A DNA stretch of 64,000 nt. Origin: an uncultured Candidatus Saccharibacteria bacterium (GTDB lineage Bacteria > Patescibacteriota > Minisyncoccia > Phycocordibacterales > DATDWN01). The stretch's first letter is position 1; every line of letters starts with the position of its first letter. Positions 8,402 through 60,958 of this stretch are shown here, one piece after another. A program made the translations under genes and the position numbers. The notes under the pieces are model-generated. The model had not been told where the DNA came from. It worked only from the letters and a program-made list of their open reading frames with translations, and did no database searches. Where the stretch lies: the NCBI GenBank assembly GCA_964603545.1, contig CAZRVD010000002.1, forward strand, positions 46,854-110,853. Direction: 5' to 3'.

Positions 8402-9613
8402 CTACAATGCGTCTGCCAGGGAGTAAGTAGGACCGAGCATACTAATTGCAAAAAATCCAACACCCACACCGATGAGTATCATAAGCACTGGCTCTATGAT
8501 AGACGACATGTCTTTTGTTTTCTGGTCTACTTCTTCTTCATAAAAAGTCGCCACTCCTAGAAGCATCTCCCCTATCTTTCCCGTTTCTTCCCCCACAGCG
8601 ACCATCTCACCAACAAAAAGCGGGTAGAGTTTGGTGTTTGTATTAAATACTCCAGAAATCGGTTCCCCCTTCTGAATTACATCTTGAATCTTTTCCAAAA
8701 CAGCTTTGTAGTAGGAGTTTTGTATAACATCTTTAGTTATTCCTATAGCTAAAACTATATCTACTCCCGAAGAAAGTAATGAGGAGAGCGTTCGAGCTGT
8801 TCTGGCAGAATTTACCTGTTTTACAATTTCCTTAACGACTGGAATATGCAAGAAAACATAGTCTGACATTCTCTGACCTTTTCTTGTTCTGTAACCTATT
8901 ACTAATAGAAATACGGAAAGAATAGTTCCAAAAATAACAAAAACAAAATAGGACTTTAAGAAACTACTAATGGCGATAATAATACGAGTAGAAAGAGGGA
9001 GTTTTATTCCAAGCCCTATAAACGTAGCGGTGAGAGTTGGCACCATGTATACCATCATCAAAACTCCAATAACTATCATAAGTGAAAAGATGACAGCTGG
9101 GTACATCATCGCTCCTCTTATTTTTTTTGTCAGCAGATATGCTTTCTCCATTTGCACACCAACATTTAGAAGTGACGTAGATAGATTTCCGGACTCTTCT
9201 CCGGCCTTAACCATCGACACAAAAAGAGTAGAAAAAACTTTTGGATAGTTTTTCATTGAGTCACTCAGAGTATTTCCCTTTGTTAGAGACTCATTTAAAC
9301 CAATTAAAACTTTTTTGAAAGCTCCTTTAGATTGACGCTCCAATATGGACAAAGCACGAGTAATAGGAAGACCGGCTTCTGTCATTTTAGAGAGATTTTT
9401 GGCAAAAACGATTTTATCTCGAGTTTTAACCCCTCCAAAAATTGAAGACAGAAATGGGATTGAGAATTCTCTCCTTCCTTTTATTTCCTCAGCGGAAATA
9501 ACTGTAGAGCCATCTTGTTTAAGAGTGTGATAAAGGGCAAATTTATCTTTTGCTTCTAAATCCCCCTCAACAACCTTTCCCTCTTTATTTAAAATTTTGT
9601 AGTGAAATAACAT
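8402..9613 (-). CDS. pilC: Type IV pilus assembly platform protein PilC (GspF family)
   Basis: 403-aa polytopic membrane protein with two GspF-like repeats, directly downstream of the pilB ATPase. Confidence 0.9.
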   Translation of the reverse strand: MLFHYKILNKEGKVVEGDLEAKDKFALYHTLKQDGSTVISAEEIKGRREFSIPFLSSIFGGVKTRDKIVFAKNLSKMTEAGLPITRALSILERQSKGAFKKVLIGLNESLTKGNTLSDSMKNYPKVFSTLFVSMVKAGEESGNLSTSLLNVGVQMEKAYLLTKKIRGAMMYPAVIFSLMIVIGVLMMVYMVPTLTATFIGLGIKLPLSTRIIIAISSFLKSYFVFVIFGTILSVFLLVIGYRTRKGQRMSDYVFLHIPVVKEIVKQVNSARTARTLSSLLSSGVDIVLAIGITKDVIQNSYYKAVLEKIQDVIQKGEPISGVFNTNTKLYPLFVGEMVAVGEETGKIGEMLLGVATFYEEEVDQKTKDMSSIIEPVLMILIGVGVGFFAISMLGPTYSLADAL

Positions 9614-9617
9614 ATTT

Positions 9618-11375
9618 TTATTCGGAAACTACCCGGAGGACTTCTTCGATCGTGGTATAACCCTGCACCGCTTGGAAAATCCCATCCTCTATCATAGTCA
9701 GCATTCCCTCTGCTTCTGCCACTTTTTGTATCTCATCAGATGTCCCGGACTTCAAAATAACCTCTTTAATAGCTGGAGAAACTTTTAAAATCTCGTGGAT
9801 ACCACTTCTTCCTGAAAAAGCCTCGTTTACTGGAACATCTTTTTTGACTCTCCAAAAAGGAACATCTTCCCATTTGTCACTTTTGCCAACAATTTTTTCT
9901 GCTTTTAGTGCATCTAGAACTTTGTCTAGATTGATTGATTTACCAAGGGTGTCGATTTCAGATTTTGTCAGGAAATATTTTTCTTTAAATTCGTTTGTTA
10001 GTTTTCTAACCAGTCTTTGTCCAATAATAATGTTTACGGTAGAAACAATAAGAAAAGGCTCCACTTTCATATCTATAAGTCTCGGTACTGCACCAGCTGC
10101 AGAGTTTGTGTGGAGTGTAGAGAGCACTACATGTCCAGTAAGAGACGCGTTTATCGCCAAACTAGCCGTCTCGTTATCACGAATCTCCCCCACCATGATA
10201 ATATCTGGGTCTTGTCGAACTAAAGTTCGCAGTCCCGATGCAAAAGTAAAACCTATCTCGGGACGAACCTGAGTTTGATTTATTCTTTTCATTTGGTACT
10301 CAATAGGATCTTCAATCGTTGAGATATTTACGTCTGGTGTATTTAATATGTCGAGTACAGTATATAGTGTGGTTGTCTTTCCCGATCCTGTAGGACCTGT
10401 TGTCAAAATCATCCCAGTTGTTGACTTTACCGCTCTATGAATTCTGTCTAAGCCCTCCCCATGAAAAGCCAAGGACTCTAGTGTAAAGCCAGAGACATTT
10501 TCTCGGAGTAATCTCATAACAATTTTCTCACCGTAGTAAGTAGGAAGAGAAGAAACACGGAATGAAACTTTTTCTCCATCTGAATCTATTTTAAATCTTC
10601 CGTCTTGAGGAAGTCTTTTTTCATCAAGTTTAAGTGAGGACAGAACTTTAATACGAGCAGCGATACTTGGCGCCATATTTTTTGGCAAAATCATAGCGTC
10701 GTGAAGTAAACCGTCTATTCTATATCTCACGAGAAGTTCTGCTTCCTGTGGCTCTATATGAATGTCAGAGGCGTTTTGCAAAATTGCATGTTTAAGTAAA
10801 GTATCCACGATTCTAATCATCGGGATATCATCTGCCATCTTCTTCAAATCTTGCTCGTTTAGCTCAGCGCCGTCTGTATTTGAAGGAATACTTTTTATAT
10901 TACTGACATCCTCTGCAATCAAATCACCAAACTCTGCCTTCAAACTTTTTTGATACTGCAAAATTGCACTCTTCATTGAATCGTCATCGGTAAGACGAGG
11001 TAAAATCTTAAGTCCCGTTTTCTTTTTTATAAAATCAATCGCAGTTAAATCTTCGGTATCTAGCATGGCAACTTCCAAACTATTGTCTGACTTTTTGAAA
11101 GCAACAACATTATGATTTCTAGCAATAGGTTCTGGAATAAGAGAGAGAACTTCAAAAGGAAGTTTTTCTTTCTTTAGGTCCACAAAAGGAATACCAAGTA
11201 TGTACGCCTGCATTCTACGAAGATCGTCTTCTGTCAGTTTGCCTTTATTTACCAAAGTTTTACCAATATTCCCCCCTTTTTCTTTGGTTTCTTTTTCGGC
11301 GACCTCAATATCAGCCTTGGAAACAAGACCCGAGTCTAGAATAAAATCTTTTAATTGTTTTTCTTCAATGTGCAT
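9618..11375 (-). CDS. pilB: Type IV pilus assembly ATPase PilB (GspE family)
   Basis: 585 aa. Walker A GPTGSGKTTTLY, GspE N-terminal domain and the conserved His-box region. Confidence 0.9.
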   Translation of the reverse strand: MHIEEKQLKDFILDSGLVSKADIEVAEKETKEKGGNIGKTLVNKGKLTEDDLRRMQAYILGIPFVDLKKEKLPFEVLSLIPEPIARNHNVVAFKKSDNSLEVAMLDTEDLTAIDFIKKKTGLKILPRLTDDDSMKSAILQYQKSLKAEFGDLIAEDVSNIKSIPSNTDGAELNEQDLKKMADDIPMIRIVDTLLKHAILQNASDIHIEPQEAELLVRYRIDGLLHDAMILPKNMAPSIAARIKVLSSLKLDEKRLPQDGRFKIDSDGEKVSFRVSSLPTYYGEKIVMRLLRENVSGFTLESLAFHGEGLDRIHRAVKSTTGMILTTGPTGSGKTTTLYTVLDILNTPDVNISTIEDPIEYQMKRINQTQVRPEIGFTFASGLRTLVRQDPDIIMVGEIRDNETASLAINASLTGHVVLSTLHTNSAAGAVPRLIDMKVEPFLIVSTVNIIIGQRLVRKLTNEFKEKYFLTKSEIDTLGKSINLDKVLDALKAEKIVGKSDKWEDVPFWRVKKDVPVNEAFSGRSGIHEILKVSPAIKEVILKSGTSDEIQKVAEAEGMLTMIEDGIFQAVQGYTTIEEVLRVVSE

Positions 11376-11380
11376 GAGAT

Positions 11381-11480
11381 ACGAAAATTATTCGAACATT
11401 ACGAATGGCTACGAATAATGCGTTTGGCTTTTTCCATTCGCAATCATTCGTTGATTTAAATTATTCGTATATTCGTATGT
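11381..11480. repeat. Array of TACGAA(T)/ATTCGTA heptamer repeats upstream of pilB; shares a 21-mer with the 19625-19760 array
   Basis: GATACGAAAATTATTCGAACATTACGAATGGCTACGAATAATG...CATTCGCAATCATTCGTTG...ATTCGTATATTCGTATG. The string ATTACGAATGGCTACGAATAAT recurs inverted at 19696-19717. Confidence 0.7.
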
Positions 11481-14587: not shown

Positions 14588-14941
14588 ATGAACGAAAACA
14601 TGCAACCAAACAACGCACCATTAAACAATATGCCGGTAGATAACGTATCCGTAAATAATTCACCTGAAAATAAGTCATCAATAGGCTCTATAATAGGAAC
14701 GATAATAGTAATCGCTATTATTATCTTGGGTGGACTTTATTTCTGGGGTAAAAGAATAGATGAAGCAAAAATGACTCAGGATTTAGTTACGGGTGAAAAT
14801 GCAGATACCGTGGTGAATGAATCTAATGACAACTTGGAAGCAAATTCAATAAAGAGTGTTAGTGGTGCGGATGATTTAAACTCAATAGAAGCAGACTTAA
14901 AAGGAACTAATACTACTAACCTTGCTCCAGAATTAGAGTAA
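14588..14941 (+). CDS. Hypothetical small membrane protein
   Basis: 117 aa with a single TM helix (IGSIIGTIIVIAIIILGGLYFWG). Confidence 0.45.
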   Translation: MNENMQPNNAPLNNMPVDNVSVNNSPENKSSIGSIIGTIIVIAIIILGGLYFWGKRIDEAKMTQDLVTGENADTVVNESNDNLEANSIKSVSGADDLNSIEADLKGTNTTNLAPELE

Positions 14942-14990
14942 AACTTCCAAATTTGGCTGATTGTTAAAAACCACTTATAGTGGTTTTTGC
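14942..14990 (+). repeat. Minimal version of the post-stop element: AACTTCCAAATTTGGC palindrome box plus terminator hairpin
   Basis: TAA-AACTTCCAAATTTGGCTGATTGTTAAAAACCACT-TAT-AGTGGTTTTTGC. The first 16 nt are identical to copy A in sense. The hairpin AAAACCACT/AGTGGTTTT is followed by a U-run. Confidence 0.7.
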
Positions 14991-15026
14991 ATTATATTTG
15001 CTAAAATACGCCTAATAATATAGACT

Positions 15027-16103
15027 TTGCTCATGTCAAAACACTATAAAGATGTAAAGATTACTCCTCTTCCAGAGAGAGAACTTGAAATAATAGGAAC
15101 AATTACTGCTGAGAAAATGAGTTTAATGCGAGAAAAAGCTTTAAAAAAACTCAAAGAATCTGTGGAACTCCCTGGGTTTAGAAAAGGAAACGCTCCCGAT
15201 AGTTTGGTGGCACAGAAAATAGGTGAGGGAACGCTCTTGGAAGAAGCTGCGGAAATAGCTCTTACGGAGGAATACCCGAGTATTTTAGAAGAACACAAAA
15301 TAGATGCTATTGGCAGACCAGAAATCACAATTACTAAAATTGGGCTTGGAAGTGATATGGAGTTTAAAATAAAAACTTCACTTATGCCAGAAGTTAAACT
15401 TGGAAATTACAAAAAAGTAGCTAGTAACCAGAATCTAGCATCTGGGGAAGAAAAGATTATAGTTCTAGATAAAGAAGTAGAGGACGTCATTGAGAATATT
15501 AGACAAAACCTGGCTCACGAAAAAGTTCACGCTGAGGCTGGTGGAGGCCATGAGCATAAGCACAGAAAAATTGAAGACAGTGACTTGCCTGAGGTAAATG
15601 ACGAGTTTGCAAAAATGCTTGGAAACTTTGAAAGTTTGGATGAAATGAAATCTAAAATCAAAGAAAATATTGTTAAAGAGAAAGAACTTAAGGCCAAAGA
15701 CAAAAGACGAACAGATATTTTGGAAAAAATAATGTTGGACTCAAAAATAGACCTGCCTAAAATTATTGTAGAAGGTGAAATGGAAAAAATGCTAGCACAG
15801 TTTAAGGACGACATTGCAAAAAGTGGAATCTCTTACGAAGATTATTTGAAACATATAAAGAAAACCGAGAATGACCTAAGAGCTGAATGGAAAGAACCTG
15901 CCCTGAAACGTGCAAAGTCCCAAGTAATACTAAACACGATTGCAAAAGAAGAAGGTATTGCTCCTAAAGAAGAAGACATCAAGAGAGAAATGGAAAACAT
16001 CCTAGCAAACTACAAAGAAGCAGATCGTTTCCGAGTGAGAATGTATGTGGAGACTTTTCTGACGAACGAACTAGTATTCCAATTTCTGGAAACACAAGTT
16101 TAA
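15027..16103 (+). CDS. tig: Trigger factor (short form)
   Basis: 358 aa. N-terminal ribosome-binding motif PGFRKGNAP. It sits upstream of clpP, the usual tig-clpP synteny. Confidence 0.8.
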   Translation: MLMSKHYKDVKITPLPERELEIIGTITAEKMSLMREKALKKLKESVELPGFRKGNAPDSLVAQKIGEGTLLEEAAEIALTEEYPSILEEHKIDAIGRPEITITKIGLGSDMEFKIKTSLMPEVKLGNYKKVASNQNLASGEEKIIVLDKEVEDVIENIRQNLAHEKVHAEAGGGHEHKHRKIEDSDLPEVNDEFAKMLGNFESLDEMKSKIKENIVKEKELKAKDKRRTDILEKIMLDSKIDLPKIIVEGEMEKMLAQFKDDIAKSGISYEDYLKHIKKTENDLRAEWKEPALKRAKSQVILNTIAKEEGIAPKEEDIKREMENILANYKEADRFRVRMYVETFLTNELVFQFLETQV

Positions 16104-16258
16104 AATCTCTTTCTCACCAAAACCTTTTCAGAGACATAAATTTTTCCAGCGAAAAATTTATTCTAGTCCTCGGTCTTGATTCGTCAAGAACGGGGTGCCT
16201 TGACGAAACCAGCTCAAGACCTGTGGATGCTCTAAAAAGGTTTTGGTTCAACGAGATT

Positions 16259-16963
16259 TTAAAGAATCAGCAGTGAAGAAATAGCGATTGCAGCTGTTTC
16301 TGCGCGGAGGATTTGGGAGCCGAGGGAGATGGCTGGAACATTGTAGGATTTAAAAAGAGCAATTTCTTTTGGGCTAAATCCCCCTTCTGGACCAACAAAA
16401 ACAGCAAAGGAATGAACACTACTTAGTCCTGAAATGTATTTGTGAAAGGAATCTCCTTCTGGGTGAAGAACTATTTTTTCTTGTGGGAGAATTCCTTTTT
16501 GAAAAACTTCTTCGATTTTCATAACTTCATGTAAAACAGGAACATCTCCCCTACCGGACTGCTCTGAAGCTTCCACCAAAATTTTATTTAATCTCTCCAT
16601 ATTTAATTTTCTTTTTTCACTGTGTTCACAGAGAATCGGAATGATACCGTTTACACCAAGCTCAGTAACCTTTTGAGCGATAAGTTCAAAATTATCTTTC
16701 TTGACTAGTGCCATGCAAAGCCAGACATTTTTTCTCGGAGCAGAGTCTGTTTTCTTTTCTTTAAACACTTCAAGAGTTGCACCAAGATTTCGTAAAGATG
16801 TGATCATGCACAGATAGTCAGTCCCAGAGCCGTCAAAAAGAATAACCTGACTTCCAACATTGTAACGAAAAACGCTTTTCCATTGGTGAATAAGATCCCG
16901 ATCGGTGAGATCAAATGATTTGCTCCCTATTGGAGTATTTGTATAAAACCTATGCAACCTCAT
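16259..16963 (-). CDS. rsmE: 16S rRNA (uracil1498-N3)-methyltransferase RsmE
   Basis: 234 aa. MRLHRFY N-terminus, PUA-like N-domain and SPOUT C-domain (LCMALVKKDNFELIAQKVTELGVNGIIPI). Confidence 0.75.
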   Translation of the reverse strand: MRLHRFYTNTPIGSKSFDLTDRDLIHQWKSVFRYNVGSQVILFDGSGTDYLCMITSLRNLGATLEVFKEKKTDSAPRKNVWLCMALVKKDNFELIAQKVTELGVNGIIPILCEHSEKRKLNMERLNKILVEASEQSGRGDVPVLHEVMKIEEVFQKGILPQEKIVLHPEGDSFHKYISGLSSVHSFAVFVGPEGGFSPKEIALFKSYNVPAISLGSQILRAETAAIAISSLLIL

Positions 16964-19631: not shown

Positions 19632-19760
19632 AGATACGAATGGACAAGTAATTCTCAAACTTACGAATCTATACGAATGAAATACTAAAACAGGTTGATT
19701 TATTCGTAGCCATTCGTAATAATCGTCCAATCTTTATTCGTATCTGTCAATCTATTGCGT
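19625..19760. repeat. Imperfect ~110-bp palindrome built from 3x TACGAAT then 3x ATTCGTA units, between rny and hup
   Basis: Left arm GATACGAATGG...TTACGAATC-TA-TACGAATGA. The reverse complement of the right arm, GATACGAAT...TTACGAATGGCTACGAATAA, aligns with the left arm. Confidence 0.7.
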
Positions 19761-25602: not shown

Positions 25603-27189
25603 ATGAAAAAATATCTAAAAATTACTGCCCTTTCTATATTTGTAATGACGGGCTTAGTCCTTGGTCTATCAAGCAAAAATGTTACGGAAGCAGCAACCAC
25701 AGCTACATTAAGTTTGTCCCCCACATCTTCTAGTATTATTTTAAATCAAAACTTTACAGTTAATATTCTACTGGACACTGTTGGTAATGCCACTGACGGT
25801 GTTGATGTTTTTTCACTCCACTTCAATCCAGCAATTCTACAAGTTGTAGACAGTAACGCATCTGTGGCTGGGGTGCAGATTGCTCCTGGATCTCTTATGC
25901 CAGCAACCACAGCAAATGTTGCAGATAACACAGCTGGAACAATACAATTCTCCCAAGCATCATCTGGAGGTAGTAATTTCACTGGAAGTGGAATTTTGGC
26001 CACAATCACTTTTAGAGCCAACGCTGTTGGCTCTAGCGCGGTTACTATGGACTTTACTCCAGGAAACACAGCTGATACTAATGTAGCTTTCCAAGGAACT
26101 GATCTTTTGCTTTCCGTTACTAATGGTACTTATACGGTTGTTAATCCTTTTGATTTCTCCGTAACTACAACAGGTGGTCCCAAATCTGTAACTCAAGGAT
26201 CATCTGTAACTCAAGCTGTTAGCTCAACTCTTATATCTGGTACAGCGGCGTCTGTGACATTTTCAGCGTCAGGACTACCAACTGGAGCTACAGCTTCTTT
26301 TTCACCCGCCTTATGTACTCCTACTTGTACAACAACAATGACTATTACTACTACAGGTTCTACACCAGTAGGAACTTCTAATGTAGTAGTTACGGGAACA
26401 TCAGGAGCAACAGTTCGAAACGCTACAGCTTTCGTTTTGACGGTGAACGCGGTGCCTCTAGATTTCTCCGTAACTACAACAGGTGGTCCCAAATCTGTAA
26501 CTCAAGGATCATCTGTAACTCAAGCTGTTAGCTCAACTCTTATATCTGGTACAGCGGCGTCTGTGACATTTTCAGCGTCAGGACTACCAACTGGAGCTAC
26601 AGCTTCTTTTTCACCCGCCTTATGTACTCCTACTTGTACAACAACAATGACTATTACTACTACAGGTTCTACACCAGTAGGAACTTCTAATGTAGTAGTT
26701 ACGGGAACATCAGGAGCAACAGTTCGAAACGCTACAGCTTTCGTTTTGACGGTGAACTTAGCTAATTATAATCGTACAATCCAAATAGACCCGGAAGGTA
26801 TTTCAAACAAAATACTATCTGGGACACTCGATGTTTTAAACCCCTCAAAAGTTTCGATCAAGACTTATCCATTTACCACAAACTCATCTGGACAAGCTAC
26901 AATTTCATTTGATATTTCTCCTCAAGTTGTGTATTTGAAACTTAACCCCACACCATTCCTTGCAAGACTGATTAGTTTAGATTTAAACACAAATACTACA
27001 TACGTATTTCCAAAACTTCTAACTGGAGATCTTAATAATGACAACTTAATTAACTCTGTAGATTACTCTGTGTTAAATGGAAACTGGTTTACCTCTAACG
27101 CCACGTCAGACCTAAACAAAGATGGTTTGGTTAACTCTATAGACTTCTCATTTATGAATCAACACTGGTTAGTAAATGGTGATGCGTAA
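25603..27189 (+). CDS. Secreted cohesin + 2x Ig-like repeat + C-terminal dockerin protein (adaptor scaffoldin-like)
   Basis: 528 aa. Signal peptide, cohesin-like TDGVDVFSLHFNPAILQV, two identical 103-aa repeats, and dockerin DLNNDNLINSVDYSVLN...DLNKDGLVNSIDFSFMN. Confidence 0.7.
   Translation: MKKYLKITALSIFVMTGLVLGLSSKNVTEAATTATLSLSPTSSSIILNQNFTVNILLDTVGNATDGVDVFSLHFNPAILQVVDSNASVAGVQIAPGSLMPATTANVADNTAGTIQFSQASSGGSNFTGSGILATITFRANAVGSSAVTMDFTPGNTADTNVAFQGTDLLLSVTNGTYTVVNPFDFSVTTTGGPKSVTQGSSVTQAVSSTLISGTAASVTFSASGLPTGATASFSPALCTPTCTTTMTITTTGSTPVGTSNVVVTGTSGATVRNATAFVLTVNAVPLDFSVTTTGGPKSVTQGSSVTQAVSSTLISGTAASVTFSASGLPTGATASFSPALCTPTCTTTMTITTTGSTPVGTSNVVVTGTSGATVRNATAFVLTVNLANYNRTIQIDPEGISNKILSGTLDVLNPSKVSIKTYPFTTNSSGQATISFDISPQVVYLKLNPTPFLARLISLDLNTNTTYVFPKLLTGDLNNDNLINSVDYSVLNGNWFTSNATSDLNKDGLVNSIDFSFMNQHWLVNGDA
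26152..26769 (+). repeat. Perfect tandem duplication (2 x 309 bp) inside the cohesin-dockerin gene
   Basis: 26152-26448 and 26461-26757 are identical by direct comparison (GATTTCTCCGTAACTACAACAGGTGGTCCC...TTGACGGTGAAC). Each encodes one Ig-like module. Confidence 0.85.
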
Positions 27190-27203: not shown

Positions 27204-28469
27204 ATGAAAAAATTCTTCATAGTAATAATCTTAGTTATTGGTTTTTCAATTTTTGCCCCACAGGCTTCAGCTGCCACCTTAATTCTATCTCCCTCTTCGG
27301 GAAATGTTACTGCTGGTCAGACTATTACTGTCGATATAATGCTTGATACTAAAAATGCAGATATTGATGGTGTTGATGTTTATTCTCTACACTACAATCC
27401 AGCTATTTTAGAGGTAGTAGACAGTAGTTCATCTGCTTCTGGAATACAAATAACCCCAGGAAGTTTGTTCCCTATCACCTTAACTAACAAAGTTACAAGT
27501 GGTGTGGTTCAATTTTCTCAAGTAACAAGTGGAGGAACCTCCTACAAGGGTGCTGGCAAACTAGCTACTATTACATTTAAAGGATTATCAAACGGAACTT
27601 CTGCGGTCACTTTTGATTTTACACCAGGAAGCACTTCAGATACTAACGTAGCGGGAGGAGGTAAGGATGAATTAACAAGTGTGGGTAGTGGTAGTTATAC
27701 GGTAACCGGCGGAGGTGTTACCCCGCCCCCACCACCACCAGTTGATACTACAGCACCAGTTATATCTGCAATTAGTTCTTCGGGGATTAAATCAAGTAGT
27801 GTAAATATTGTGTGGACAACAGATGAATCTTCTGACACGGTAGTTGAGTATGGTCTCACTACATCATATGGATCTCTGAGTACAAACTCTTCTCTACTAA
27901 CTCTTCACTCAAGGTCATTAGTTAATCTAAAATCAAACACTCTTTACCACTTCCGAGTAAAATCAAAAGATGCTGCAGGAAACCTGGCTGTCTCTACTGA
28001 TAAAACATTCACTACTCTGGCTGGTTCCTCCACTCCTCCTCCACCACCAACTCCTACCCCGACACCTACACCTGGTCCAGGTCCAGCTCCTAGACCAACA
28101 CCTACACCGTCTCCAACATCTAGTGGTACTGGCCCTAGACTCTCTTCAATATACGCCTTAGAGATTTCTGATAGTTCCGCAATAATTTCATGGAAAACAG
28201 ACAGGCCATCTGATTCCAAAGTGGAATACGGCAAAACAGATAGCTATGAATCAAGTACGGAAGTTAATTCATCTTTTGTCACTTCACACTCATTTAATTT
28301 ATCAAACCTTTCATCGGGCACAACATACCACTACCGTGTAAGATCAATTGATGAATCAGGTAATTTAACTTTTTCTGGCGACAGAACTTTTACAACAATT
28401 AATGTTATTGAAAATGACATGAACTTCTTTGAAAGAATTTGGGATTGGTTTATCTCTCTATTTGTTTAG
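27204..28469 (+). CDS. Secreted cohesin + Pro-rich linkers + 2x fibronectin-III-like domains, C-terminal hydrophobic tail
   Basis: 421 aa. Cohesin-like IDGVDVYSLHYNPAILEV. Linkers PPPPPP and PTPTPTPTPGPGPAPRPTPTPSP. Two FN3-like modules (SS..I.W.TDE.SD..VEYG). Tail FERIWDWFISLFV. Confidence 0.7.
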   Translation: MKKFFIVIILVIGFSIFAPQASAATLILSPSSGNVTAGQTITVDIMLDTKNADIDGVDVYSLHYNPAILEVVDSSSSASGIQITPGSLFPITLTNKVTSGVVQFSQVTSGGTSYKGAGKLATITFKGLSNGTSAVTFDFTPGSTSDTNVAGGGKDELTSVGSGSYTVTGGGVTPPPPPPVDTTAPVISAISSSGIKSSSVNIVWTTDESSDTVVEYGLTTSYGSLSTNSSLLTLHSRSLVNLKSNTLYHFRVKSKDAAGNLAVSTDKTFTTLAGSSTPPPPPTPTPTPTPGPGPAPRPTPTPSPTSSGTGPRLSSIYALEISDSSAIISWKTDRPSDSKVEYGKTDSYESSTEVNSSFVTSHSFNLSNLSSGTTYHYRVRSIDESGNLTFSGDRTFTTINVIENDMNFFERIWDWFISLFV

Positions 28470-30049: not shown

Positions 30050-30610
30050 CTATAGGACAAGGTCTTCAAGTAAAAAGACCTGCGATGATTGTGTGTTTGG
30101 ATCAAGATGAACAGTTACAACATCAAACTGCCAATCAACATTATCTGGGACATTTCTGTCTAGTAAATATGACTGCACTGCCCTACTTAGCCTCTGTAGT
30201 TTCCAAGGATGCATATTATCCTCTGGACGGTAATCGTCCTGGTGGCGCATTTCTTTGTTGGAATAAGAAATGTTCTCGTCATCGTAATTTTTTACGTCTC
30301 CTCGCCTATTCCTTATTCCGCCTCGAACTGCATCCATCAGGCCGTTTACCCAGCCCTTATTGGTTTCACGAGTAACATTACTTAAGTCTCTTGAAACACT
30401 TTTAACCTCTACAAAGTGAAGCTTATTCCCTTTCTTCACAACAATATCTATCTCTCCCCATTTCTTTAGGTAATTACGTTCAATTACTTTATAGCCAAGT
30501 CCTGTTAAGTACTTACAAGCATCATCCTCCCCTATCTGGCCAATTTTCTGTTTATCCGTAGGCTCTTTTGAGAAATTCTTGTTATACATATCTAAAATAT
30601 ACTCCGACAT
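30050..30610 (-). CDS. YraN-family (UPF0102) predicted endonuclease with ~65-aa internal insertion
   Basis: IGQIGEDDACKYLTGLGYKVIERNYLKKWGEIDIVVKKGNKLHFVEVK is the YraN core. At 186 aa it is longer than typical, with a GC-richer insert in the middle. Confidence 0.7.
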   Translation of the reverse strand: MSEYILDMYNKNFSKEPTDKQKIGQIGEDDACKYLTGLGYKVIERNYLKKWGEIDIVVKKGNKLHFVEVKSVSRDLSNVTRETNKGWVNGLMDAVRGGIRNRRGDVKNYDDENISYSNKEMRHQDDYRPEDNMHPWKLQRLSRAVQSYLLDRNVPDNVDWQFDVVTVHLDPNTQSSQVFLLEDLVL

Positions 30611-32681: not shown

Positions 32682-32704
32682 AAATTCCAAATTTTAATAT
32701 AAAA

Positions 32705-32763
32705 AACCGCCCAATGATCAAGGTCCATGGGGGAGTGTCATGGGCACTAATCATTGAGCGGTT
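32705..32763 (+). terminator. Long interrupted hairpin after cca (possible terminator or structured RNA)
   Basis: AACCGC-CCAATGATC-AAG-GTCCATG-[GGGGAGTGT]-CATGGGC-AC-TAATCATTG-A-GCGGTT, then TTGG. Further hairpins GGGAGTCGGCCGACTCCC (32888-32905) and GTCCTTTA-TAAGATACTG-TAAAGGAC (32993-33018). Confidence 0.4.
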
Positions 32764-33061
32764 TGGAGAGAAGACCCACACAGCATCCGTGAAGCTAGAT
32801 GTTGTAACTGAACTCCAAAAATATAAGTAGATAGCGAGGGTTCGTTTACACCTATTTCTTGATAAGAAACCAAGTGGTCTTCTGAGGGGAGTCGGCCGAC
32901 TCCCAAAATGGGTCGCACGACGAAGAACAAATTGCAAATGTCGTGTTCAGGGTTTATTGGACACTCTAATTGCGGTTCCTTAATTAGTGTATGTCCTTTA
33001 TAAGATACTGTAAAGGACATAAGCCAGAAAATTGTGGATAACTTAGATTAAGTTTCGATTT

Positions 33062-38918: not shown

Positions 38919-39040
38919 AAACTTTCACAATTTGTGCTAAATCCGATGTGAGAAATTAAAAATGTGAGAAGCCTTATTAGACATAAGGTGACGAGTATTT
39001 TTAATTTTGGAACGAGGAGTTAGCCAAATTTGAAAATTTT
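38919..39040 (-). repeat. Post-stop structured repeat, copy B (begins at stop of M23 peptidase gene)
   Basis: Sense strand reads TAA-AATTTTCAAATTTGGCTAACTCCTCGTTCCAAAATTAAAAATACTCGTCACC-[CCTTAT GTCTA ATAAGG]-CTTCTCACATTTTTAATTTCTCACATCGGATTTAGCACAAATTGTGAAAGTTT. Confidence 0.85.
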
Positions 39041-58182: not shown

Positions 58183-59523
58183 ATGATGGAAAACAAAAAG
58201 CTTTGGGATGGTGTCTTGGTTGAAATGGAGTTAAATCTATCCAAACCAAACTTCAATACTTGGTTCAAAGACACATTTATAGTTAAACAAGAGAACGGCG
58301 CGGTTCACCTTGGAGTCCCAAACACTTTTGTACAAGACTGGCTCAGTAGTAAATTCCACAACACCATCCTAAAAGCCTTAAGAAACATCTCCAGTAACGT
58401 CCAATCACTACACTACACTATCTCTAGGGAAGACATGAAAGAGAGAGCTTTATCAGAGAAACCCCAACAAACCACAAGGGAGTTACCGATCGCAGATACC
58501 TATATAAATAAGGAAGACAATCTTAACCCTAGATACACCTTTGATACTTTTGTGGTCGGGCCATTTAATGAATTTGCCCACGCAGCCAGCCAAGCAGTAA
58601 TTAAAAAACCTGGAATAGTTTACAACCCGCTATTTGTTTATGGGGGAACTGGACACGGAAAAACTCACCTTATACAAGCCATGGGTAATTACTTAAAAAG
58701 TTCTGGGAATAGAAAAGTTTTTTATACTACTTCAGAAAAGTTTTCTCAGGAACTCGTTAATGCCATACAAGCAAACAGGCCAAACTTTTTTAAGGAGAAA
58801 TACAGAAAATATGATGTTTTAATAATGGATGATGTTCAGTTTTTCTCTGGAAAAATGAAAACCCAGGAAGAGTTGTTCCATTTGTTTAATCATTTATACG
58901 AGAACAACAAACAGATAATCTTCTCCTCAGATAAGCACCCAGCCCTGATCCAAGACCTTGAAGATCGCCTCAAATCCAGATTTAGTGCTGGAATGACTGT
59001 AGACATACCCACACCAGACAATGAGTCCAGAATTGCCATTATTAGAGCTAAATTGAACAGTAGTGAGTATCCGCTGTCTAAAGAGGTTATTGAGTATCTA
59101 GCATACTCAATAAATGGAAACATTAGGGAACTAGAAGGAATAATAAACTCAATAACCTGCCAGTCACAACTTAAAGGTAGAGAACTTTCACTTTCAGAGG
59201 TTAAAAATTTTGTTAAAAACAACACTAGACCTAAAAAAATAATTTCAATAAAAGAGGTTGTCAAAACTGTTTCTGATTTTTATAACATAGAAGAACAATT
59301 AATTTACGACAAGACTCGCAAAAAAGAGATTATAAAACCTCGACAAATAATCATGTATATCTTACGTGAAGATTTTAACATCTCTTTCCCTGCAATAGGG
59401 GAAAAACTTGGTGGAAGAGATCATACAACCGTTATGCACTCGTGTGAAAAAATTAAAAATGATGTAAAAACAGACGAACTTTTACTACAAGAGATAAACC
59501 AACTGCGGTCTATCTTTGTGTAA
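58183..59523 (+). CDS. dnaA: Chromosomal replication initiator DnaA
   Basis: 446 aa. Walker A GGTGHGKTHL, box VII, and the C-terminal DNA-binding HTH (GGRDHTTVMH). Confidence 0.95.
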   Translation: MMENKKLWDGVLVEMELNLSKPNFNTWFKDTFIVKQENGAVHLGVPNTFVQDWLSSKFHNTILKALRNISSNVQSLHYTISREDMKERALSEKPQQTTRELPIADTYINKEDNLNPRYTFDTFVVGPFNEFAHAASQAVIKKPGIVYNPLFVYGGTGHGKTHLIQAMGNYLKSSGNRKVFYTTSEKFSQELVNAIQANRPNFFKEKYRKYDVLIMDDVQFFSGKMKTQEELFHLFNHLYENNKQIIFSSDKHPALIQDLEDRLKSRFSAGMTVDIPTPDNESRIAIIRAKLNSSEYPLSKEVIEYLAYSINGNIRELEGIINSITCQSQLKGRELSLSEVKNFVKNNTRPKKIISIKEVVKTVSDFYNIEEQLIYDKTRKKEIIKPRQIIMYILREDFNISFPAIGEKLGGRDHTTVMHSCEKIKNDVKTDELLLQEINQLRSIFV

Positions 59524-59734: not shown

Positions 59735-60835
59735 ATGAACATAGAATGTATTAAGGACAAACTTTCATACGCTATTGGAAAAGCTGAAAAAATTACAGGT
59801 AAAAATATTACACTACCTATATTAGGTTGTGTACTCCTTGAGGCTGACAAATCAACATTAACAATAAAAGCTACAAATTTAGATTTAGGTATAGAGATAA
59901 ATATTCCTGTAAAGGTAATAAAACCAGGAAAAGTAGCTGTTTCTGGTTCGGTTTTGTATAATTTTATATCAAACATAATTACTGATAAAAATGTTTCTTT
60001 GGAGGTTGTAGATGGAAATTTAAAAGTGTCAACAAAACATTCAGAATCAACAATAAAATCATTCCCAATTGATGATTTTCCAAATATTCCAAAAGTGTCT
60101 AGTGATAATCCTTTTACATTTAACGCTCCAAATTTAATAAAAGGATTAAAATCTGTAATGTATAGTTCTTCCGTTTCAACAATAAGGCCGACACTTTCTA
60201 GTGTTTTGGTTTTATCTGAAGACGAAGAGGTTGTTTTTGTCGCAACAGACTCCTTTAGGTTGGGAGAAAAGAAGATTGGAGTAAAAAAACACAAAGATTT
60301 TAATCAAATTCTTATACCCTTTAAAAACATAGGGGAGATTATAAGAGTTTTAGAAGATATAAAAGATGATGTTTTGGTTTTTCTAAATGAAAATCAAATA
60401 GCTTTTTCTTACGGAGATATATATATTACATCGAGGGTAATAGACGGTGTTTTTCCTGATTACAAACAAATAATTCCAAAAGATACAAAAACTGAGGTTA
60501 TAGTTTTAAAACAGGATTTCATAAGCTCTCTGAAAATATCAAACATTTTCGCTGATAAATTTAGTCAAGTCACTTTCTTTATCTCTCCCAAAAATAACCT
60601 TTTTAAAGTTTCAACAAAAAATATGGATGTAGGAGAAAGTATAAGTAATATAGATGCGGTTTTAAAAGGGGAAGAATTATCTATAAGTTTTAACTATAAA
60701 TATATAGTAGACTGTTTTCAATCTATAGACAGCGATAGCATCTCTCTTTCTTTTTCTGACGCAAACAAACCAATGGTAATAAGAGGGGTTTCGGATAAAT
60801 CATTTCTCTACCTGGTTATGCCGATGAATAAATAA
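59735..60835 (+). CDS. dnaN: DNA polymerase III beta sliding clamp
   Basis: 366 aa with the three-domain beta-clamp pattern, downstream of dnaA. Confidence 0.9.
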   Translation: MNIECIKDKLSYAIGKAEKITGKNITLPILGCVLLEADKSTLTIKATNLDLGIEINIPVKVIKPGKVAVSGSVLYNFISNIITDKNVSLEVVDGNLKVSTKHSESTIKSFPIDDFPNIPKVSSDNPFTFNAPNLIKGLKSVMYSSSVSTIRPTLSSVLVLSEDEEVVFVATDSFRLGEKKIGVKKHKDFNQILIPFKNIGEIIRVLEDIKDDVLVFLNENQIAFSYGDIYITSRVIDGVFPDYKQIIPKDTKTEVIVLKQDFISSLKISNIFADKFSQVTFFISPKNNLFKVSTKNMDVGESISNIDAVLKGEELSISFNYKYIVDCFQSIDSDSISLSFSDANKPMVIRGVSDKSFLYLVMPMNK

Positions 60836-60958
60836 AGACTTCCAAATCCGGCGAACTCCTGGTTTCAAATTTAAAAATACTCATCATCTTACTGTTTGTA
60901 AGGCTCCTCTCATTTTTAAATTCTCAACTTCGGATTTCATCCAAATTATGAAAGTCTT
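60836..60958 (+). repeat. Post-stop structured repeat, copy E (sense with dnaN, begins at its stop codon)
   Basis: TAA-AGACTTCCAAATCCGGCGAACTCCTGGTTTCAAATTTAAAAATACTCATCATC-[CTTAC TGTTT GTAAG]-GCTCCTCTCATTTTTAAATTCTCAACTTCGGATTTCATCCAAATTATGAAAGTCTT. Aligns with revcomp of copy A. Confidence 0.85.

Follow-up and report, generated by a model that had tools for sequence, protein, structure and literature searches.

A stop-abutting 16-nt box as the probable remnant of a dispersed palindromic repeat of Patescibacteria

We consider it probable that (i) the 16-nt box that follows the stop codon of a small gene upstream of tig (site E) is a truncated copy of a dispersed, imperfect palindrome of ~125 bp, reduced to 16-19 nt at the outer end of its 5' arm, (ii) the terminator adjoining it is an ordinary one, unrelated to the repeat, and (iii) the repeat family is a non-autonomous mobile palindrome of the REP/ERIC/RPE type. 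The repeat itself appears to be an undescribed, phylum-scale palindrome of the reduced genomes of Patescibacteria. In what follows, the window is the whole stretch of DNA analyzed, 64,000 nucleotides long, and loci compared with it carry L numbers.

Site E, AACTTCCAAATTTGGC (14942-14957, plus strand), begins at the first position after the TAA (14939-14941, plus strand) that closes ORF 14588-14941, a 117-aa reading frame without a Pfam match, and so has its 5' foot directly against the stop of a gene on its own strand, a trait of the family. The site is a solo 5'-arm fragment, lacking the interior and the 3' arm of the repeat: a remnant of the 3' arm was sought at the site and none was found, nor did the site give any match to the family covariance model R1 (E<=10, filters off). 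The exact 16-mer occurs at two places in the 64 kb, site E and 2023-2038 on the minus strand, the latter within copy A of the palindrome. This confirms the 16/16 identity to copy A that a sequence-only reading of the window had pointed out, and the identity extends to 19/19 when the TAA is included; the same 19 nt, TAA plus box, are shared by site E and many members of the family. Counted within the window, the motif stood out in its long form, two exact 16-mers per 64 kb being far above the chance expectation, whereas the shorter CCAAATTTGG was not enriched by itself (four found at <=1 mismatch vs 4.1 expected). When <=3 mismatches were allowed, the 16-mer had four matches vs 1.5 expected, a difference that is not significant alone. 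Solo boxes are scarce: ~0.85 Mb of family-rich DNA yielded only site E and one 30-nt arm fragment, and at <=2 mismatches site E was the only one in L001-L074. The arm fragment, found at 12478 of L080 among relatives of the trigger-factor region, consists of ~30 nt of the 5' arm, placed between a stop codon and a canonical terminator, and is plainly a truncated arm.

The terminator that the same reading had placed right after the box is indeed present, at 14965-14989 (plus strand), where TAAAAACCACT and AGTGGTTTTTG form an 11-pair stem around a 3-nt TAT loop, followed by a T-rich tail. This short, G+C-containing stem-loop with a T-run directly after it has the form of an intrinsic (Rho-independent) terminator of the 14588-14941 gene, and it is the sole terminator-like site in 14800-15200, where 0.1 would be expected. 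Between the small upstream ORF and tig, eight orthologous spacers share the nearly invariant sequence TTGCYAAAATAnGCCTAATAATATAGACT; in the window, this block (TTGCTAAAATACGCCTAATAATATAGACT, 14998-15026, plus strand) lies just upstream of the tig ATG (15033) and, by its sequence, looks like the tig promoter. In the same eight spacers the terminator is preserved as a structure, and conservation is lowest in the box after the stop. At the orthologous site, L075, L098 and L094 have box-like sequence with a terminator behind it, while in L088 and L089 the site holds a perfect palindrome, AACTTCCGAATTCGGAAGTT, with an 18-bp stem formed by GTAAAGTAAAAACTTCCG and CGGAAGTTTTTACTTTAC (9348-9387 of L088, equal to 6262-6301 of L089); it is located upstream of the tig promoter and looks like a copy of the repeat with a collapsed center. 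One feature of the site speaks against a relic: the box in the window is perfect (16/16), though the truncation seems older than the split from the relatives in which the box has decayed, so that a perfect box beside decayed orthologs calls for gene conversion or else for constraint acting on the box.

A second minimal form, proposed after the cca stop, did not survive closer inspection. The sequence AAATTCCAAATTTTAATAT (32682-32700, plus strand) is present there, but it agrees with the box at no more than 12 of 16 positions, scores 10 bits (E=8.6) with the family covariance model, and is replaced by ACAAAGTAATT at that position in the closest relative. With a weight matrix for the box it reaches 11 bits, and about five unrelated positions in the window score as high (>=10 bits). 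This stretch, which we do not count as a member of the family, is AT-rich and lies past the T6 run with which a minus-strand terminator ends; this terminator closes a conserved intergenic region of 380 nt (32682-33061, minus strand). The region is 83% identical to 20246-20613 of L075, the adjoining cca coding DNA being 80% identical; on the minus strand it has a promoter-like TTTACA-17-TACACT, ends in a long hairpin plus T6, and, judged by these features, is a candidate for an ncRNA of ~280 nt. It had no match in Rfam at E<=10.

The box belongs to an imperfect palindrome of ~125 nt, in which it makes up the outer 5' arm, and six recognizable copies of this palindrome, four full and two divergent, are found in the window, about one per 10 kb. 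The full copies A-D were obtained by repeat finding and alignment, and both strands of each fold into a single long hairpin. With model R1, which was built from 61 copies and has 133 positions and 29 pairs, they score 104-121 bits, and the divergent copies F and G score 52-54 bits. The 5' foot of copy A (1920-2039, minus strand, 119 bits) overlaps the TAA of the phosphoglycerate kinase (PGK) gene. Copy D (8282-8402, minus strand, 104 bits) directly follows a T2SS-F/PilC-like gene that ends in TAG, and is separated from the next ATG by 16 nt; its ortholog in L075 keeps the hairpin, with a much diverged sequence. Copy B (38919-39039, minus strand, 115 bits) immediately adjoins the TAA that ends an M23/LysM peptidase gene, and copy C (60836-60957, plus strand, 121 bits) that of dnaN, 12 nt before the next ATG. 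Copy F (4248-4367, core 4260-4356, minus strand, 52 bits) begins its hairpin at the G of the TAG stop of ORF 4367-5836, and copy G (30229-30350, core 30243-30336, plus strand, 54 bits) lies within the UPF0102/YraN-like ORF 30050-30610 (minus strand). The dnaN gene that precedes copy C (59735-60835) encodes all three beta-clamp domains (Pfam). The 446-aa ORF just upstream of it (58183-59523) could be dnaA, in which case the region of the chromosomal origin may lie within the window.

When each prokaryotic species was represented by one genome, a scan with a gapped pattern picked out 74 loci, ~57 of them true members of the family. The member loci come from MAGs labelled Zambryskibacteria, Lloydbacteria, Paceibacterota, Minisyncoccia, Parcubacteria and Patescibacteria, with a few short contigs binned elsewhere. 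Run over the loci, the covariance model found 79 non-redundant copies, often several per 8 kb; strong matches number 80, in ~60 Patescibacteria loci. The arms of the element are AACTTCCAAATTTGG and CCAAATTRTGAAAGTT, its head is AACTTCC, and conservation within the family is highest in the outer arms. In Rfam 15, only four tRNAs in the window reach the gathering score, and copy A retrieved nothing relevant at E<=10; a limited full-text search of the literature on the motif and on repeats of Patescibacteria or Parcubacteria found no description of it. One locus, L086, carries a unit of ~100 nt twice, 1.4 kb apart (966-981 and 2393-2408), in which a box-like AACTTTCAAATTTAGG precedes a G+C-rich hairpin; one of its two copies adjoins a full family element.

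The full element is one long hairpin that is maintained by compensatory substitutions. Across the 80 strong model matches, 94.9% of cells form standard pairs and 23 of the 29 pairs show double changes, a level of pairing that none of 500 shuffles, and no slid register, approached. The box forms the outer 5' strand of a stem of ~55 bp and covaries with its 3' partner, as in CCAAATCTGG/CCAGATTGTG of L075 and GACTT/AAGTC of copy C; double changes are seen in 13 of the 17 pairs of the outer helix. Copies F and G keep the full-length hairpin with a different outer stem sequence that has no CCAAATTTGG, and F is still placed at a stop codon. The two arms of the element differ consistently by one C.A mismatch and one bulged purine. 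The foot of the long palindrome is A/T-rich with only 3-5 T, and the palindrome does not itself have the form of a canonical terminator. No ORF is conserved in the element, because the frame relative to the stop varies; a conserved peptide, or readthrough into the element, was rejected on finding that the stop-to-foot offset varies over eight positions, and an internal promoter on finding no consistent -35/-10 by eye.

Placement directly at the stop codon, which had been suggested for the box, proved to be a property of the family. In 59 of 76 full copies the 5' foot lies at a TAA (44) or a TAG (15), with the stop -4 to +3 nt from the first stem base, where an abutting stop was defined as the TAA or TAG that ends an ORF of >=50 codons; orientation is identical in all 59. 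The genes upstream are unrelated housekeeping genes, including those for PGK, DnaN, the T2SS-F/PilC-like protein, the M23 peptidase, EF-Tu, GyrB and RNase Y (Pfam), as well as others recognized by eye. In six loci the gene before the element ends in ...VVTKI[IV]A (EF-Tu, one of them verified by Pfam), and in four (L002, L020, L036 and the window) it ends in ...FEIRGARNPF (M23 peptidase). That several species carry the element behind the same genes may be a sign that selection retains it, and that it is not purely selfish. In ~10 further copies, the 5'-box end faces a divergent gene, with 3-25 nt between it and the start codon. The opposite (3') end is loosely placed, at distances of 4 to several hundred nt from the next gene, and is <=8 nt from a convergent stop in two cases only. 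Of 52 co-directional genes downstream, 15 start <=35 nt from the element; a convergent gene follows 24 copies, and many copies are followed by 50-300 nt that include a promoter or terminator. A conservative scan found a canonical terminator <=90 nt downstream of at least 12 of the 76 copies (for example, at the EF-Tu sites); this number is a lower bound, because the scan missed the terminator of site E itself.

Several other properties of the neighborhood were considered. The genes of the window use TAA 37 times, TAG 16 times and TGA twice, and we rejected the lack of TGA among the abutting stops as evidence of TA targeting, since TGA is rare anyway (2 of 55 genes). A Shine-Dalgarno-like 4-mer is found upstream of only four of the 55 predicted genes, and in many genes a TATAAT-like box precedes the ATG by a few bases, a pattern that suggests mRNAs with a very short leader or none. 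Mimicry of an anti-Shine-Dalgarno sequence by the CUCCU loops of the element was discarded, the genome being essentially without Shine-Dalgarno sites. Orientation relative to the replication strand proved unusable, since the GC skew of the window simply follows the gene strand.

Comparison with L075, which is syntenic with ~5,000-33,500 of the window and has a trigger factor 83% identical to that of the window, revealed filled and empty sites. Elements are present in L075 after the ortholog of ORF 9618-11375, where the window has a 4-nt spacer; after the gene for RNase Y, where the window has a different palindrome of 113 nt; and after the YraN-like gene, where the window has nine unrelated nucleotides. 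The last of these is a clean filled/empty pair, and it shows no target-site duplication at the YraN stop, nine nucleotides being replaced by ~131; many copies are flanked by TA(R)...(Y)TA, and this flank is part of the palindrome. Conversely, copy G forms an in-frame insertion of 28-31 aa in the UPF0102/YraN-like protein that is absent from the L075 ortholog (186 aa in the window vs 154 aa in L075), and the Pfam UPF0102 match is broken at copy G, at profile position 44 of 80. It is the only intragenic copy among ~85. Homogenization of copies within genomes was rejected, in that the closest relative was in the same MAG for only 4 of 37 copies from well-sampled MAGs. Some non-orthologous copies of different MAGs reach 92-98% identity in the interior; identity between orthologous copies ranges from 93-96% down to ~60%. 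No pair of boxes at the spacing of an insertion sequence was found in ~1.2 Mb of loci, and neither an autonomous partner element nor a mobilizing enzyme was found, which, like the missing duplication, counts against the reading favored here. Taken together, the compensated hairpin, the foot at a co-directional stop, the gain and loss between close relatives, and the in-frame copy indicate a family that behaves as a non-autonomous mobile palindrome of the REP/ERIC/RPE type.

The window holds other repeats and palindromes. The 113-nt palindrome that takes the place of the L075 element after the RNase Y gene (19632-19745, AGATACGAAT...ATTCGTATCT) starts at the first position after the stop and, on its sequence, may represent a second family of stop-anchored palindromes; an inverted partial copy of it lies at 11384-11418. 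A composite palindrome of 165 nt (16099-16263) fills the gap between the convergent tig and ORF 16259-16963, folds with -48 and -57 kcal/mol on the two strands, and holds both stop codons in its outer stem. As these palindromes are unrelated to the family, stop-flush hairpins look general in this compact genome. In addition, two tandem 300-nt copies, 99% identical and spaced by 309 nt, are located at 26146-26754 inside ORF 25603-27189, whose neighboring ORFs share related repeats of 97 and 40 nt; proline-rich short repeats are found at 28032-28115.

Among known systems, REP/BIME elements consist of 20-40 nt units that share a GTAG head, and RAYT transposases are associated with them; they are extragenic palindromes thought to protect the upstream mRNA, and many REPs of E. 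coli lie within ~15 nt of stop codons. The repeat is likewise an extragenic palindrome at gene 3' ends, but it is ~125 nt long and its head is AACTTCC, without GTAG. The ERIC sequences are imperfect palindromes of ~125 bp that are multi-copy, dispersed, located in transcribed intergenic regions (often at gene 3' ends), conserved across genera and occasionally intragenic (PMC10969869). The repeat resembles them in its length of ~125 bp, its single long hairpin, and its multi-copy, dispersed occurrence at gene 3' ends with an occasional intragenic copy; it differs in having one end mostly flush with a stop codon, a near-fixed orientation, and an antisense strand that is always the better hairpin, its host phylum is unrelated, and so, apparently, is its sequence. 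Rickettsia palindromic elements (RPEs), ~100-150 bp long and found in small, reduced genomes, occur both in non-coding DNA and in frame within unrelated housekeeping genes (PMC10969869). Copy G, as an in-frame insertion of 28-31 aa, behaves in this way, but the repeat lies mostly right after stops, with a single intragenic copy in ~85, and has no sequence relationship to the RPEs. Correia/NEMIS, RUP, SPRITE and other MITEs are small, non-coding elements with terminal inverted repeats and presence/absence polymorphism, which are co-transcribed and form terminator-like or RNase-substrate hairpins (PMC10969869). The repeat shares their small size (~125 bp), terminal inverted repeats, non-coding nature, dispersal (six copies per 64 kb) and insertion polymorphism (three sites filled in L075 only, one the reverse), but it is palindromic throughout and not only at its ends, shows no duplication at the one clean site, and no parent insertion sequence with the same ends was found for it in the ~1.2 Mb of loci. 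The mixture of retention, turnover and intragenic insertion is as described for ERIC, RPE and other MITE-like repeats (PMC10969869).

As for function, the element has a stop codon on one side and, on the other, a canonical terminator or the next cistron (within 35 nt in 15 of 52 cases), so its sense strand should be contained in the upstream mRNA. We postulate that the element would be co-transcribed at the 3' end of that message, where the sense hairpin could block 3' exonucleases or act in a terminator-like way, serving as a 3'-end barrier. The spacer between the stop codon and the hairpin may have been removed by the deletion bias of compact genomes, a bias that would be a sufficient reason for its absence, and deletions obliged to spare the stop codon would leave stubs of the 5' arm such as those at site E and in L080.

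That function resides in the CCAAATTTGG box at the stop, as either a site bound by a termination or 3'-end factor or a processing site that acts with the downstream terminator, with the long palindrome as its elaborated form, strikes us as very unlikely. Such a role would fit the exact box at site E, the box-like sequence and terminator at the orthologous site of three relatives, the order of stop, box and terminator after a different gene in L080, and the conservation of the outer arms above the rest of the family. It does not fit a box that covaries with the 3' arm as one side of a stem, that is missing from copies F and G while the hairpin (and, in F, the anchoring at the stop) is kept, that almost never occurs solo, and that is the least conserved part of the spacers orthologous to site E. 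A scan of viral contigs with the 16-mer, moreover, gave 45 exact matches, all of them due to chance and none with a covariance-model match or an element. As copies F and G lack the box, and a canonical terminator was detected in only ~12 of 76 copies by the conservative scan, box plus terminator is not the invariant core of the family that the sequence-only reading had suggested. A device linked to translation we hold to be highly improbable. Here, the terminating ribosome would melt the 5' arm and expose the 3' arm and the downstream start, allowing coupling or reinitiation across the looped-out hairpin without a Shine-Dalgarno sequence, or the element would offer a C-rich, G-poor loading site for Rho after the stop. 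The foot does fall within the footprint of a terminating ribosome, the 3' arm has a conserved RTG, the sense strand is 23% C and 14% G, and both the near absence of Shine-Dalgarno sites and the 15 close downstream genes are in keeping with this idea; yet most copies are at the ends of transcription units, 24 of them before a convergent gene and many with 50-300 nt of promoter- or terminator-bearing sequence, ~10 abut a divergent start codon and not a stop, and a rut site should be unstructured, whereas pairing in the element is under selection.

A more serious rival arises from the asymmetry between the strands. Without exception among the 76 full copies, the better hairpin is formed by the strand antisense to the adjoining gene, with a mean folding energy of -50.8 vs -37.2 kcal/mol for the sense strand with RNA parameters, and -27.9 vs -22.7 with DNA parameters. 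A.C and pyrimidine mismatches of the sense strand correspond to G.U and tandem G.A pairs on the antisense strand: the sense strand has 268 A.C mismatches vs 61 G.U pairs, and its conserved loops CUCGUCA/CUCCUCA become tandem G.A pairs on the antisense strand. Alifold gives the reverse strand a consensus energy of -18.2, vs -9.0 for the forward strand. The excess of C over G on the sense strand is specific to the element, C and G being about equal in ordinary spacers. A role as a 3' hairpin of mRNA does not predict an advantage of the antisense strand; on the other hand, the asymmetry is inherited by the whole family and thus amounts to one observation, not 76 independent tests, for which reason a role of single-stranded DNA or antisense RNA is kept as a serious, non-exclusive rival. 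According to this alternative, the folded, G-rich antisense strand would be functional, as the substrate of a tyrosine recombinase or HUH enzyme (compare attC, REP-RAYT and the ends of IS200/IS605) or as a hairpin that stops transcription from downstream; the bias in gene orientation would then be secondary. We think it unlikely, and it is compatible with site E being a relic. The attC sites are imperfect palindromes of 57-141 nt with conserved AAC...GTT ends and a variable center in which structure is kept; with their orientation fixed, they adjoin the stop of the ORF before them, and of the two strands the antisense one is the better or functional hairpin. The repeat shares their size range, their AAC...GTT ends, the variable but structured center, the site after the stop, the fixed orientation and the better antisense hairpin, and the one mismatch and one bulged purine by which its arms consistently differ also favor this alternative. 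Nevertheless, the attC motifs RYYYAAC/GTTRRRY are lacking, AAC and GTT being nearly invariant but flanked by A-rich and T-rich sequence (TAAA-AAC ... GTT-TTTA), and the copies are single and kilobases apart, dispersed after core housekeeping genes, without cassette arrays; no integrase, adjacent or otherwise, and no TnpA was identified. Further, a next gene at 6-35 nt leaves no room for the promoter of an antisense RNA, and the strict abutment of the stop codon is not predicted.

An extension of this idea, to which we assign a low probability, is that the repeat is a domesticated, strand-specific hairpin system across Paceibacteria, in which a conserved protein recognizes the asymmetric foot, with its one fixed mismatch and one bulged purine, and the folded antisense strand is the functional form. 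If so, it might be an attC-like single-strand recombination site for exchanging the ends of housekeeping genes or, alternatively, an insulator against antisense transcription in AT-rich, promoter-dense, leaderless genomes.

For site E, the result is deflationary, in that the apparent minimal form is best read as a stub of the repeat beside a normal terminator. The family as a whole, of moderate interest, offers in its strand asymmetry a puzzle, in its copies a practical marker for the annotation of gene ends and for assembly joins in CPR MAGs, and in its survival a case on which to test how palindromes, selfish or domesticated, hold out where deletion bias is strong.
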